DNA of 64,000 bases from Escherichia coli (GCF_003334405.1 NZ_QOWM01000012.1); one strand, 5' to 3'. Positions 43,485 to 61,620 are shown, counted from the stretch's first letter. Numbers and translations are program-made. Notes: generated from the sequence alone by a model not told the origin.

Positions 43485-43590
43485 CTGCCTGATGCGCTGC
43501 GCTTATCAGGCCTACAAGGTTTCTGCAATATATTGAATTTGCAATATTTTGTAGGCCGGATAAGGCGTTCACGCCGCATCCGGCAAGTCC
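43485..43590. repeat. REP elements between lafB and lafA
   Basis: cctgatgcgctgcgcttatcaggcctac ... gtaggccggataaggcgttcacgccgcatccggcaag. Confidence 0.7.
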
Positions 43591-43594
43591 GCCA

Positions 43595-44509
43595 TTACTG
43601 CAGCAGGCTGGAAACCATGCTGGACATGCTGTTGGACTGTTTCAGCATGGTGATGCCGGTCTGCATCAGCACCTGCTGTTTGGTCATATTGGACGCTTCC
43701 GTAGCGTAGTCGGTATCCATGATGTTACCGATAGCAACTTCGGTGTTGTCCTGCATACTGGTCAGGTTATTAGCCGTGTCGTTCAGACGGTTGATAGACG
43801 CACCCAGCTTGGACTGGATCTGCGAAACATCATCCATCGCGGTAGAAATGCTGGTGATCATCTGGTTAGCCGAGCCAGACGCAGTCAGTTCAGTACCGCC
43901 AGAAACGCCTGCGGTGCCTGTGGTGTCTGCCTGATCCGCACTGAAGGAGTTGCTGATAGCAGAAAGGTCAGTCACCAGCGTGTTCAGTTGGCTAGAGATG
44001 TTCACGGTCATGGTGTCGGAAGATTCCGCGCCCACCTGGAAAGTTACCGCGCTCTGGAACAGGCCGTCAGTACCGGTGTTGCTGGTGCCGGAAACACCGA
44101 ACAGGTTGGTGCCGCCGTAGGTGGTGTTTTGCAGCATGTCAGACATCTGCTGGCCCAGTTCGTCGTATTCGTCCTGCATCGCCTGCAGATCGTCGTCGCT
44201 GTAGGTGCCGTTCGCTGCCTGAGTTGACAGGTCTTTCATACGACCCAGCACGTCAGACATTTCGTCGAACATGCTGTCGGCGGTTTGCAGCATCGCGGTG
44301 GCATCATTGATGTTGCTCAGCGCAACATCCATACCGCTGGACTGTGCTGTCAGACGGTTAGCAATTTGTTTGCCTGCGGCGTCATCGGCAGAAGAGTTAA
44401 TCCGGTTACCTGTCGCCAGGCGTTCCATAGATGTAGACAGAGAAGAGCTGCTTTTGCTGATTGCATTAACGGCGGCCATTGAGGCGTTATTGGTGTTAAT
44501 AGATAACAT
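43595..44509 (-). CDS. lafA: Lateral flagellin
   Basis: The ORF track starts at 44575; the conserved flagellin N-terminus MLSINTNNASMAAVNAISK begins at ~44509; conserved C-terminal D0 region. Confidence 0.85.
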   Translation of the reverse strand: MLSINTNNASMAAVNAISKSSSSLSTSMERLATGNRINSSADDAAGKQIANRLTAQSSGMDVALSNINDATAMLQTADSMFDEMSDVLGRMKDLSTQAANGTYSDDDLQAMQDEYDELGQQMSDMLQNTTYGGTNLFGVSGTSNTGTDGLFQSAVTFQVGAESSDTMTVNISSQLNTLVTDLSAISNSFSADQADTTGTAGVSGGTELTASGSANQMITSISTAMDDVSQIQSKLGASINRLNDTANNLTSMQDNTEVAIGNIMDTDYATEASNMTKQQVLMQTGITMLKQSNSMSSMVSSLLQ

Positions 44510-44943
44510 GATACTGCTCCTTGGGATTAATCGTTTTCGTTTCGATACCCTGTAAAAACGACACCTCGGGAGCAAACTTAAAACCGCCGTTAAAAAAATT
44601 TCACTGCGGTTTATCTGATGCCACTTTTAGCTAAAAAAAGCAGAGTTTAAATTCAGATAAAAAGATTATTAGCAATATCTGCCACATGGCCAGGTATCAA
44701 AATATGTCTTTATCAAACGCTTGATATAGTTAAGATTACCATCAATTAACGCGTTTTCTTCTCAATGTACTGATGCCAAAATTTACATTGCGTTGCAAAT
44801 AGTACACATTTGGCTATTGTACCTGTCCTGTCATTTCGTTACATTTCCACGCCATATAGTGATTAAGAATAATCCTATTACCATAAAATATTAATTATCA
44901 CGCAGAAAAATCATCTTCTCAGGGACGTATAAGACTGTGCTTT

Positions 44944-58904: not shown

Positions 58905-59045
58905 CGCTCTGTGCGCGCTTTGCCCCTCACCCTAACCCTCTCCCCAAAGGGGCGAGGGGACCGATCGAGCACAGTGTTAAAATCGGCGCTGATTTTCTCC
59001 CTCTCCCTGTGGGAGAGGGTTGGGGTGAGGGCATCAGCGCGCACA
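58905..59045. repeat. Long imperfect palindromic repeat element, distinct from REP
   Basis: gcccctcaccctaaccctctccccaaaggggcgagggg ... ctccctctccctgtgggagagggttggggtgagggc. Confidence 0.5.
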
Positions 59046-61525
59046 TTCATCACATTCACCCATTAACTCACCCAAACACCATGCCAACACCAACCATCAT
59101 CAAAACACTCAACACCCACCGCGAAAAACCGTTTGTCAGCGTCGTCACGCCAACCTGGAACCGCGGCGCATTCCTGCCGTACCTGCTCTATATGTACCGC
59201 TATCAGGATTACCCGGCAGACCGCCGCGAACTCATCATCCTCGACGATTCCCCACAAAGCCATCAACACATCATCGACCGCCTGACCAATGGCACGCCGG
59301 AAGCCTTTAACATCCGCTACATCCATCACCCGGAAAAACTGCCGCTGGGCAAAAAACGCAACATGCTCAACGAACTGGCGCGCGGCGAATACATCCTCTG
59401 CATGGACGATGACGACTACTACCCGGCAGATAAAATCTCTTACACCATCGCCATGATGCAAAAACACCGGGCGCTCATCTCCGGCTCCGATCAGATCCCC
59501 ATCTGGTACAGCCACATCAACCGCATCTTTCAAAGCCGCAGCTTTGGCCCGCATAACATCCTCAACGGCACCTTTTGCTATCACCGTAACTACCTGAAAA
59601 AGCACCGTTACGACGATGATTGCAATTTAGGCGAAGAGAAACGTTTCACCGACAATTTCAGCGTAAACCCGCTGCAACTGCCCGGCGAGCGCACGATTCT
59701 GTGTATCTCGCATAGTCAAAACACCTTTGATAAAGATTTTATTCTCGGGGCCAGCACGCCAGTAAACGCGGCGCTTACGGATATCGTCCGCGATCCGCTG
59801 CTGCGCAATGCTTATCTGAGTCTGCATAACGCCACTCATCACCAGGCGATCAACCATCAGGCGATCGATCAGATCGTTCTGCTGAATCTGGATAAACGCC
59901 CGGATCGCTTACAACAGATCCGTGAAGAACTGGCATTGCTGCATATTCCACCTGAGAAGATCACCCGCCTTGCCGCCAGTGAAGATGAAAACGGTCAACG
60001 GGGCCGCCGTCAGTCGCACTTACAGGCGCTGCGCCTGGCGCAACAGCACGGCTGGCAAAACTACCTGCTGCTGGAAGATGACGCGGTTATTCTCAAGCAG
60101 GAGAAACATATTCAGGTACTGAACACGCTGCTGGCGAGCCTGGCGAAAATTCCCTGGCAGGTGATGATCCTCGGTGGCGAAATTTCGCAGGGAACGATGC
60201 TAAAAAGTTTGCCGGGGCTGGTGCACGCGCGGGACTGCCGCAAAGTGTGCGCGTATCTGGTGAACAGCCGCTACTACCCGCAACTGGCGCAGCAGATGAG
60301 CAACGATGAGCACTCGCTGGAAGCCTGCTGGCAGCCGCTGCTACGCGCCGACAAATGGCTGGCCTGTTACCCGAGCCTTTGCTACCAGCGACCGGGTTTT
60401 AGTGATATCGAGAAAAAAACGACTGATAATATTGCTCACTATTTCAATAAGTTACCCGTAGCCACCAAGCCATCTACATTACCCATCGCCGATACCATCG
60501 GCTTTTTTATGGAAACCTCATTCCACTACACGCTGTACCGCCCAATCATCACCGCTCTACAGGCGCAGGGGCAGAGCTGCACACTAGTGATCAATGACCG
60601 CGTGTTTAAACCGTTTCTTGATGAGATGCTGGAAACACTGAAAAACATCGACGATCCGCAGCTTAAAGGTATGCGTCTGTCAGAAATGCAGACACATGGT
60701 CAGCGGGTGAAATGCCTGGTCAGCCCCTACCACACGCCTGCGCTCAATGGCCTGGCGGCGGTGAACATCCGCGCTATGTACGGCTTAGCCAAAGAGACGT
60801 GGAACCACGCCGACTGGAATCGTTTTTACCAAAGCATTTTGTGTTATAGCCACTACAGTCAGCAGGCGCTGGCGCATTTCGGCAGCGCAAAAGTGGTCGG
60901 CAACCCGCGCTTCGACGCCTGGCATAACGGCACGTTCGATCGCGCGTTGCCGGAAAACATCCAATCAGATTACCGTAAACCTACGGTGCTCTATGCCCCA
61001 ACGTTTAGCGCATTAAGCTCCCTGCCCCACTGGGCTGAAAAATTGGGCCGCTTGAGCGGTGATGTGAACCTGATTTGCAAACTGCACCATGGCACCTGCT
61101 CACGCCCGGAAGAAGCAGCATCGCTGGCCCTGGTGCGCAGGCATTTAAAACAGCGCACCGACTCCGCCCGCCACACGCTGGCGCTGCTGGCAAAAGCCGA
61201 TTACGTGCTGACCGATAACAGCGGGTTTATTTTCGATGCTATCCACGTTGATAAGCGGGTGATCCTGCTCGACTTTCCGGGCATGAATGATTTGCTCGAC
61301 GGTGAGAAAAGTTATTCCACGGCAGAGAGCGCCGACCAGCGAATCCGCGAAATATTGCCGGTTGCTCATGATGTTGCAGAACTGCGTTATTTGTTGTCAG
61401 AGGCGTTTGACTGGGGGTCGGTGCAGGCGCGGCTTACGGAGATTCGCCATCACTATTGCGATGCGTTTATGGATGGCAAGGCGGGAGAACGGGCGGCGAT
61501 TGTGATTGTGGAGGCGCTGGGGTAA
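59009..61525 (+). CDS. Multidomain glycosyltransferase: N-terminal GT2-like, central GT25-like, C-terminal TagF-like CDP-glycerol glycerophosphotransferase
   Basis: 838-aa ORF; VSVVTPTWNR...ILDDS and CMDDDDYY (GT-A DxD motifs); LLNLDKRPDR (GT25-like); VLYAPTF and YVLTDNSGFIFDAIH (TagF-like). Likely start MPTPTII at ~59081. Confidence 0.75.
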   Translation: MGEGWGEGISAHIHHIHPLTHPNTMPTPTIIKTLNTHREKPFVSVVTPTWNRGAFLPYLLYMYRYQDYPADRRELIILDDSPQSHQHIIDRLTNGTPEAFNIRYIHHPEKLPLGKKRNMLNELARGEYILCMDDDDYYPADKISYTIAMMQKHRALISGSDQIPIWYSHINRIFQSRSFGPHNILNGTFCYHRNYLKKHRYDDDCNLGEEKRFTDNFSVNPLQLPGERTILCISHSQNTFDKDFILGASTPVNAALTDIVRDPLLRNAYLSLHNATHHQAINHQAIDQIVLLNLDKRPDRLQQIREELALLHIPPEKITRLAASEDENGQRGRRQSHLQALRLAQQHGWQNYLLLEDDAVILKQEKHIQVLNTLLASLAKIPWQVMILGGEISQGTMLKSLPGLVHARDCRKVCAYLVNSRYYPQLAQQMSNDEHSLEACWQPLLRADKWLACYPSLCYQRPGFSDIEKKTTDNIAHYFNKLPVATKPSTLPIADTIGFFMETSFHYTLYRPIITALQAQGQSCTLVINDRVFKPFLDEMLETLKNIDDPQLKGMRLSEMQTHGQRVKCLVSPYHTPALNGLAAVNIRAMYGLAKETWNHADWNRFYQSILCYSHYSQQALAHFGSAKVVGNPRFDAWHNGTFDRALPENIQSDYRKPTVLYAPTFSALSSLPHWAEKLGRLSGDVNLICKLHHGTCSRPEEAASLALVRRHLKQRTDSARHTLALLAKADYVLTDNSGFIFDAIHVDKRVILLDFPGMNDLLDGEKSYSTAESADQRIREILPVAHDVAELRYLLSEAFDWGSVQARLTEIRHHYCDAFMDGKAGERAAIVIVEALG

Positions 61526-61534
61526 ACCGCGCAA

Positions 61535-61620
61535 CTGCCTGATGCGCTTCGCTTATCAGGCCTACGGATCGATCACGTCCTGTAGGCCGGATAAGGCGTT
61601 TACGCCGCATCCGGCAAGAA
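61535..61620. repeat. REP elements
   Basis: ctgatgcgcttcgcttatcaggcctac ... gtaggccggataaggcgtttacgccgcatccggcaag. Confidence 0.6.

Follow-up and report, generated by a model that had tools for sequence, protein, structure and literature searches.

Ordinary REP and BIME repeats between the lateral flagellar genes of Escherichia coli: moderate enrichment, copy-number variation, and irrelevance to the K-12-type deletion

Why do repetitive extragenic palindromic (REP) sequences crowd the gaps between lateral flagellar genes in Escherichia coli, and do they shape the expression or the loss of these genes? REPs are non-autonomous palindromic elements of a family tied to the RayT (YafM) tyrosine transposase, and REPs and bacterial interspersed mosaic elements (BIMEs), together with their polymorphism and the RayT connection, are textbook knowledge on E. 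coli. We analyzed a 64-kb stretch of an E. coli genome (NZ_QOWM01000012.1, assembly GCF_003334405.1), referred to here as the window, in which the region 43487-61615 falls inside the Flag-2 (lateral flagella) cluster, annotated in RefSeq as spanning lafU to flhA (lfhA). Gene annotation was adopted from the RefSeq record of the E. coli FORC_081 chromosome (NZ_CP029057.1), which is 100% identical to window positions 43000-62000. Here, we describe the identity and architecture of the repeats in this region, their enrichment, their polymorphism and restriction to one lineage, and their irrelevance to the K-12-type deletion of the cluster. The elements are ordinary E. coli REP/BIME repeats, thus of a known kind, with an enrichment that is modestly new; as a discovery, they carry little weight. 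As a full explanation, we consider it probable that common Y, Z1, and Z2 REPs, arranged singly, in BIME-1-like or REPIN-like inverted pairs, and in one BIME-2 array, colonized the Flag-2 cluster in Escherichia and fluctuated in number thereafter.

REPs were called with a two-arm pattern. Twelve complete matches were found in the window, every one of them within 43487-61615 and accompanied by 2 partial copies, and the pattern detected no REP at window positions 1-43486. These sequences represent the canonical E. coli Y, Z1, and Z2 classes and possess GCC[G/T]GATGCG and CTTATC[C/A]GGCCTAC arms with terminal GTAG/CTAC in an imperfect palindrome of about 30 to 40 nt. The motif GCCGGATGCGGCG was matched 24 times with at most 2 mismatches, compared to 3.6 matches expected from shuffled sequences, and CGCCTTATCCGGCCTAC 9 times with at most 3 mismatches, compared to 0.09 expected. 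Matches confined to the REPs were present in each of the 5426 complete E. coli genomes that constituted our survey set, at no fewer than 24 places per genome, as befits a dispersed high-copy family. On the transcribed strand, the repeats fold into stem-loops of -23 to -65 kcal/mol (z = -2.6 to -5.8 versus shuffles).

The first-pass annotation of the window, made from its sequence, stated that at least seven intergenic gaps of the cluster carry REP palindromes, and exactly seven annotated gaps do: fliD-lafA, lafZ-lafW, flgK-flgJ, flgH-flgG, flgG-flgF, flgE-flgD, and a gap between a glycosyltransferase and a nucleotidyltransferase gene. Three of them hold single REPs, two hold Y+Z1 inverted pairs with short linkers, one holds a BIME-1-like element, and one a BIME-2 array. 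All copies are intergenic and lie 6 to 27 nt from stop codons. Among the gaps of this region that contain a gene 3' end, 7 out of 10 carry REPs and one more carries an element of a different family, BoxC, whereas neither of the two divergent promoter gaps within 43487-61615 (lafA-lafZ and flgB-flgA) contains a REP.

Because the annotated K-12 record lists no REP features, the background density was measured directly with the same two-arm pattern in 278 kb drawn from six regions elsewhere in this genome, which yielded 19 REPs in 11 loci, or 0.040 REP loci per kb. The corresponding densities are 0.39 per kb in the region 43487-61615 and 0.21 per kb in the whole Flag-2 cluster (Poisson P of ~1e-5 and ~2e-4, respectively). 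E. coli K-12 has about 355 REP loci, and relative to this number the P values are 6e-4 for the region and 0.01 for the whole cluster. All these values are generous, since the region was picked after the fact. The enrichment is real but moderate, at 5- to 10-fold over the same-genome baseline, which agrees with the initial description of these elements as dense between lateral flagellar genes. The REP loci behind this density were gained only in the Escherichia lineage. As to the enrichment across the 38-kb cluster, the terms "palindrom," "repetitive," and "intergenic" do not occur in the Flag-2 comparative paper (PMC6993521).

The most elaborate REP locus is the BIME-2 array in the flgK-flgJ gap (49294-49497, both strands), recognized by REP pattern, alignment, and Rfam match. 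It starts with a truncated Y REP that has lost 18 bp (49294-49308, plus strand), followed by a 34-nt linker, a Z2 REP (49344-49379, minus strand), a 14-nt linker, a complete Y REP (49394-49427, plus strand), a second 34-nt linker, and a last Z2 REP (49462-49497, minus strand). This Y'-34-Z2-14-Y-34-Z2 layout displays the alternating orientation and variable unit number of a BIME-2. The first-pass annotation had reported two near-identical tandem units of ~110 bp at 49275-49500. Their tandem nature held up, with 89 of 100 ungapped positions identical in pairwise alignment, but the units measure 100 bp (49294-49393) and 118 bp (49394-49511) and differ by a single gap of 18 bp, which is what shortens the first Y REP. 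Tandem Repeats Finder gave no report of this tandem at 49294-49511; direct reading and alignment confirm it. The Rfam family naRNA4 (RF02564) matched at 49347-49424 on the minus strand with 83.9 bits (gathering threshold, 59.5 bits), and at relaxed thresholds every other REP site produced a sub-threshold match to this family. Since the naRNA4 model is essentially a Z2-Y REP pair, the match indicates REP identity and not RNA expression. The relaxed scan revealed no RNA family at the REP sites beyond naRNA4 and ES036, the remainder being chance matches to eukaryotic families.

With known BIME-2 elements, such as the REP325 locus that gives rise to naRNA4, the flgK-flgJ array shares the Y and Z2 sequences, their alternation, the 34- and 14-nt linkers, and the variable number of units. 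It differs in the Y REP shortened by 18 bp and in its location in a lateral flagella cluster missing from K-12. The array is flanked on one side by the stop codon of flgJ, at a distance of 16 nt, and on the other by a sigma-28-like core of the flgK promoter; this core is conserved across genera, including Citrobacter, and the BIME lies upstream of it.

REP occupancy at orthologous gaps of other Flag-2-positive genomes, a check proposed with the first-pass annotation, was compared gap by gap in seven E. coli strains, and the same gaps proved to be occupied, by 0 to 7 REPs. The numbers ranged from 0 to 7 at fliD-lafA, 1 to 5 at flgK-flgJ, 0 to 4 at flgE-flgD, 0 to 1 at flgH-flgG, and 0 to 2 in the glycosyltransferase gap; the flgG-flgF gap always contained one. 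In other strains or species, 1, 2, 3, 5, and 11 REPs were counted in the flgK-flgJ gap. Copy number changed in steps of complete Y-Z2 units, and single REPs had in addition undergone partial internal deletion. To classify gap lengths, coding anchors joined across the gap were used as the query, which gave at least six length classes for flgK-flgJ and six for flgE-flgD. Among 58 genomes sampled for flgK-flgJ, the gap measured 175-189 bp in 48, 205 bp in 1, 253 bp in 2, 383 bp in 1, and 420-421 bp in 6, and relatives with anchors 100% identical to those in the window have a 421-bp gap compared to 303 bp in the window, a difference of exactly 118 bp. The 44 genomes sampled for flgE-flgD fell into classes of 23 bp (8 genomes), 84 bp (7), 143 bp (5), 159 bp (5), 261-263 bp (4), and 271 bp (15), where 23 bp corresponds to no REP and 271 bp to four.

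The BIME at the 3' end of lafA is changeable as well. In the window, the fliD-lafA gap contains a Z1 REP (43487-43515, plus strand; assigned by REP pattern and class), which is the distal one of the two arms of a BIME-1-like element within the 3' untranslated region (UTR) of lafA, a 35-nt AT-rich linker (43516-43550, minus strand) with an integration host factor (IHF)-like site ATTCAATATATTG (43526-43538) that deviates from WATCAANNNNTTR by one mismatch, and a Y REP (43551-43584, minus strand; REP pattern) that begins 10 nt past the lafA stop codon. The sequence at 43487-43584, with its Z1, its 35-nt linker and putative IHF site, and its Y, has the layout of a BIME-1 (RIP) element; the pair folds as a long hairpin (-47 kcal/mol, z = -3.8), and the Rfam family ES036/CssrF matched at 43508-43550 with 44.6 bits (gathering threshold, 37.6 bits). 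Dispersed copies from other E. coli genomes match the complete 123-bp element with 93-95% identity, a further feature shared with BIME-1/RIP. Unlike in those elements, what occupies its position varies by strain, a BIME-2 array, a single Y REP, or nothing being found there in other strains.

For the distribution beyond E. coli, one genome per species was scanned with the lateral FlgG protein, which returned 80 loci. Eighteen non-Escherichia Flag-2 loci belong to Citrobacter, Pseudescherichia, Leminorella, and Enterobacter, with ~73-77% DNA identity in the four that were measured. Their gaps are short (17-33 bp at flgG-flgF, 22-39 bp at flgE-flgD, and 66-100 bp at flgK-flgJ), and no E. coli-type REP was found in the gaps of these 18 loci, except at flgH-flgG of Citrobacter youngae ATCC 29220. 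Since the gaps of these other genera are short (about 26-30 bp at two of them) and devoid of E. coli-type REPs, it appears that REPs colonized the Flag-2 cluster in the Escherichia lineage and that their copy number is still changing. Loci of the Escherichia type were found in Escherichia whittamii, two other Escherichia species, two Pseudocitrobacter species, and one metagenome-assembled genome labelled Citrobacter sp.; all of them carry REPs, and the five measured are 89-94% identical to the window. The Flag-2 clusters of Pseudocitrobacter vendiensis and P. faecalis are 91-92% identical to that of E. coli, as close as that of E. whittamii, whereas Citrobacter species reach 76-77%. This similarity, combined with E. 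coli-type REP arrays, suggests that Flag-2 was transferred horizontally together with its REPs in the case of Pseudocitrobacter. In Pseudocitrobacter and one Escherichia species, a BoxC-type element occupies the flgK-flgJ or flgH-flgG gap in place of REPs, which implies that these positions simply tolerate insertions.

The flgH-flgG gap deserves separate mention. In C. youngae ATCC 29220, it contains one E. coli-type REP, where its relatives have only a short GC-rich hairpin. This REP was apparently gained independently at the same position, and since Citrobacter flgH-flgG gaps have a short GC-rich hairpin of their own, the gap may have carried a palindrome ancestrally. In the window, it holds a REP variant (GTCGGATGCG...CTTATCCGACCTAC; 51632-51667, minus strand) that folds at -26.4 kcal/mol (z = -5.8). 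Strain comparison revealed that this REP is split by a 121-bp insertion (51668-51788, minus strand), which expands the gap to 203 bp from the 82 bp found without it and comprises a 9-bp inverted repeat as well as degenerate halves of REPs; 20 bp of the REP are duplicated at 51769-51788, and this REP half begins 8 nt past the flgG stop codon. The insertion is present in FORC_081 and SCU-113, missing from four other strains, and also found in E. whittamii and another Escherichia species. We considered and rejected a mobile element as its source: a 108-bp query (51668-51775) was single-copy in the 205 of 5426 E. coli genomes that have it, and was confined to this locus in all of them, which rules out a dispersed element.

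How might this state have arisen, and what would it do to the transcripts? In the scenario that we favor, REPs would have entered 3'-proximal gaps of Flag-2 in the Escherichia lineage after its split from the Citrobacter-type cluster, and arrays would then have grown and shrunk by whole 118-bp Y-Z2 units, along with partial internal deletions, presumably through slipped-strand or unequal recombination and possibly through RayT activity. The flgK-flgJ array of the window looks like the five-REP form of close relatives minus one 118-bp unit. In transcripts, the repeats would form very stable hairpins 6 to 16 nt past stop codons, which, by analogy to characterized REPs, most likely block 3'-to-5' exonucleases and mildly lower translation or read-through at the junctions. 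That REPs are so dense is most likely due to insertions being tolerated in a cluster under weak selection, and often in decay, rather than to a tuned design, with selection presumably relaxed. The decay of the cluster fits this notion: lateral fliI (62478-63815, minus strand) has an internal stop and is listed in the annotation as a pseudogene, so that Flag-2 is probably non-functional in the window strain, and frameshifts affect motA and fliF in two other strains with Flag-2.

The strongest competing view of gene expression is that the REPs are adaptive regulators within the operons, their hairpins after flgD, flgF, flgG, flgJ, and lafA tuning mRNA stability, read-through, translation, and hence stoichiometry. 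REPs can shield the 3' ends of mRNA, act as transcription attenuators, and lower translation if located within 15 nt of a stop codon, and ribosome stalling has been reported for REPs within this distance, a condition met by about half of the E. coli REPs (Liang 2015, as cited in PMC12306157). REPs start 6 to 16 nt past the stop codons of lafA, lafZ, lafW, flgJ, flgG, flgF, flgD, and the glycosyltransferase gene; of nine gene ends beside REPs, six lie within the 15-nt range, two at 16 nt, and one at 27 nt. Such spacing seems to favor regulation, but it is typical of E. coli REPs and not special, given the share that satisfies the 15-nt rule in that source. Three REP sites lie inside the operon from flgB to flgJ, predicted to be driven by a sigma-54 promoter at 56264-56278. 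Against tuned stoichiometry speak the wide differences in copy number at most gaps, the empty flgE-flgD gap in 8 of 44 genomes, the orthologous gaps of other genera without E. coli-type REPs, and BoxC elements filling the same positions in some lineages. Moreover, in our own reading, REPs after flgD would favor flgBCD at the expense of flgE, although the abundance of the hook protein calls for the reverse. We therefore regard stoichiometry tuning as unlikely, at least in its strong form.

Several points nevertheless weigh against insertion tolerance as the sole explanation. Element identity alone does not account for the 5- to 10-fold enrichment, and every RNA-level effect considered here rests on analogy. 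The flgG-flgF gap contains a single Y REP (52618-52651, plus strand), located 9 nt past the flgF stop codon, which is the only REP site invariant in the seven E. coli strains and is present in all Escherichia-type loci examined. The flgF-flgG gap of the K-12 primary flagellar system likewise has a Y REP, along with a degenerate REP, in the same orientation relative to transcription as the Flag-2 REP, and the K-12 fliC 3' UTR carries a BIME, which is part of the small RNA (sRNA) FliX. By analogy, some REP copies could thus be kept for function, and owing to these parallels in the primary system the regulatory interpretation stays alive for the flgG-flgF REP and for lafA.

The parallel between the two flagellin genes deserves a closer look. 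Downstream of both lafA (43440-43594, minus strand) and K-12 fliC come a Y+Z1 BIME whose linker is AT-rich, a short spacer, and an intrinsic terminator. In lafA, this terminator (43440-43463, minus strand), a 10-bp stem with 7 GC pairs and a T-rich tail, is located downstream of the BIME and is not a REP; promoter and terminator scans otherwise gave counts near those of shuffled sequences, the lafA terminator alone being convincing. FliX-S includes one of the fliC 3' UTR REPs (PMC10578931). However, the lafA BIME has the opposite orientation and is strain-variable, and the sequence outside the REPs is mostly unrelated, so that the layout alone is shared.

Could the density then stem from a transposase gene nearby? 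The rayT gene, encoding the REP-associated tyrosine transposase, adjoins flhA ~11 kb past the end of the window and is flanked by 2 to 8 REPs. It was found in 3569 of the 5426 genomes, and in 1370 a hicAB toxin-antitoxin cassette takes its place. Local seeding, with RayT acting near its own gene and arrays decaying upon rayT loss, would agree with this proximity and with the state of the flgE-flgD gap. In the window, this gap contains an inverted pair composed of a Y REP (54647-54680, plus strand), which starts 16 nt past the flgD stop codon, an 18-nt linker, and a Z1 REP (54699-54727, minus strand), the pair (54647-54727) folding at -44.9 kcal/mol. All four examined strains with the REP-free 23-bp gap have hicAB, whereas all four examined rayT-positive strains have REPs there. 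Furthermore, REPs in the locus are fewest in the one strain without rayT to have been examined in full (8, compared to 14-27 in the other six loci), and RAYT-positive E. coli carry more REPINs genome-wide (PMC8049555). Yet no density gradient away from rayT was seen, either within Flag-2, where the nearest 13 kb have one REP locus and the stretch at 14-32 kb has seven, or in the 50 kb flanking rayT on its far side, where the density is near baseline with 3 loci; we therefore rejected such a gradient. The hicAB strains also have in common a distinct flgE-flgD allele (~90% identity), and for this reason the association of rayT with REPs may go back to a single lineage event. Taken together, seeding by the adjacent rayT strikes us as very unlikely to be the source of the density.

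Related to this is the broader idea that the Escherichia Flag-2 cluster is a sink for small palindromic repeats whose load may track rayT, with, as a sub-case, the lafA 3' UTR BIME giving rise to a FliX-like sRNA that links the lateral and primary systems. The lineage in which hicAB replaced rayT has the smallest arrays and one gap free of REPs. We rate this idea as quite unlikely; if true, however, the locus would be a natural experiment for RayT-dependent REP maintenance, and the rayT/hicAB alternative beside Flag-2 offers in any case a modest handle on whether RayT maintains REP arrays in its vicinity. With the REPIN-RAYT systems described by Bertels and Rainey, Nunvar, and Ton-Hoang, the locus shares inverted pairs and a single-copy, REP-flanked rayT, as well as vertical inheritance, gain and loss of copies by amplification and deletion on a local scale, and a lower REP number in the absence of rayT. 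REPINs are known to amplify and delete locally in tandem (PMC8049555). The difference is that mobilization of the Flag-2 REPs by RayT is what we infer here.

Colonization of the cluster followed by local fluctuation thus remains the reading that we prefer for the presence of the REPs; does it extend to the frequent loss of Flag-2? The first-pass annotation had proposed that the REPs, as recombination targets, explain the frequent deletion of Flag-2, and had suggested comparing the deletion endpoints in K-12-like strains with REP positions. As dispersed repeats, they could recombine in principle, and in two genomes BLAST coverage of the cluster seemed to end at REP positions. These candidate partial clusters were rejected, since both clusters are complete and the breaks are alignment artifacts caused by indels in variable-length REP gaps, which should be kept in mind in BLAST surveys, where apparent partial Flag-2 clusters can arise in this way. 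Alignment of the K-12 remnant to the intact cluster placed the K-12 junction within the coding sequences of both flhA (lfhA) and lafU, which are fused at GAT, a microhomology of 3 bp; the REPs closest to the junction are 1.7 kb and 5.6 kb away. A 200-bp probe across this junction was intact in 4086 of the 5426 complete genomes. The internal segments lafA, flgI, and flgD-flgB were detected in 1272, 1273, and 1279 genomes, respectively, and these nearly equal counts imply that internal REP-to-REP deletions are rare. The lfhA-lafU junction and the cluster-bearing states together account for ~99% of the genomes, for which REP-mediated loss of Flag-2 is refuted; roughly 65 genomes have neither. Loss in ~75% of E. 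coli is thus a single type of lfhA-lafU microhomology deletion that is unrelated to REPs. In the literature, this deletion has been described, and other Flag-2 losses have been attributed to insertion sequence (IS) elements (PMC6993521). REPs as the substrates behind frequent Flag-2 loss are accordingly exceedingly improbable, and the proposed link between REPs and deletion falls away; endpoints unrelated to REP positions, as seen at the K-12 junction, were what the first-pass annotation had itself named as speaking against it.

Two REP sites and one BoxC site complete the inventory. The convergent lafZ and lafW genes are separated by a single 37-nt REP (45853-45889, plus strand), 15 nt and 6 nt from the respective stop codons, that folds at -23.5 kcal/mol (z = -4.7). 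In the convergent gap between the glycosyltransferase and nucleotidyltransferase genes, REP pattern matching identified a Z1 REP (61537-61565, plus strand), which forms an inverted pair across a 16-nt linker with a Y REP (61582-61615, minus strand); the pair folds at -44.4 kcal/mol (z = -4.0). This gap (61526-61642) measures 117 bp in the window and 1.7-2.9 kb in other strains, which have 2 to 3 additional hypothetical genes there. The REP pair lies at the edge of this gap, which is a hot spot for cargo insertion such as has been described for Flag-2.

The gap between a hypothetical gene and the glycosyltransferase gene contains a BoxC inverted pair (58910-59045, both strands) instead of a REP. 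BoxC, the intrastrand-triplex or TMECO element, is a family separate from the REPs. The element shares with published members an inverted intergenic pair, presence/absence polymorphism, and the triplex motif CCCTC[T/G]CCC...GGGAGAGGG...GGGTGAGGG, which matches entries in the TMECO Table 1 of PMC4666352. As expected for a multi-copy, intergenic family, BoxC occurs at a median of 16 places per E. coli genome. The element is missing, leaving a 43-bp gap, in three of the seven strains.

Perfect matches to the sigma-54 promoter core (TGGCAC-N5-TTGC) were observed at 43337-43351 and 56264-56278 on the minus strand, upstream of fliD and flgB, respectively, which they would serve, and a consensus site for putative IHF binding is situated at 43369-43381, upstream of the predicted fliD core. 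The other end of the window, 1-25830, is occupied by a prophage integrated at a tRNA-Thr gene (25843-25918). It has repeats of its own: the tail-sheath gene contains a 132-bp tandem repeat in 2.4 copies (826-1136), and a helix-turn-helix gene, maybe a replication gene, contains an iteron-like 15-bp repeat in 4.3 copies (19575-19638).

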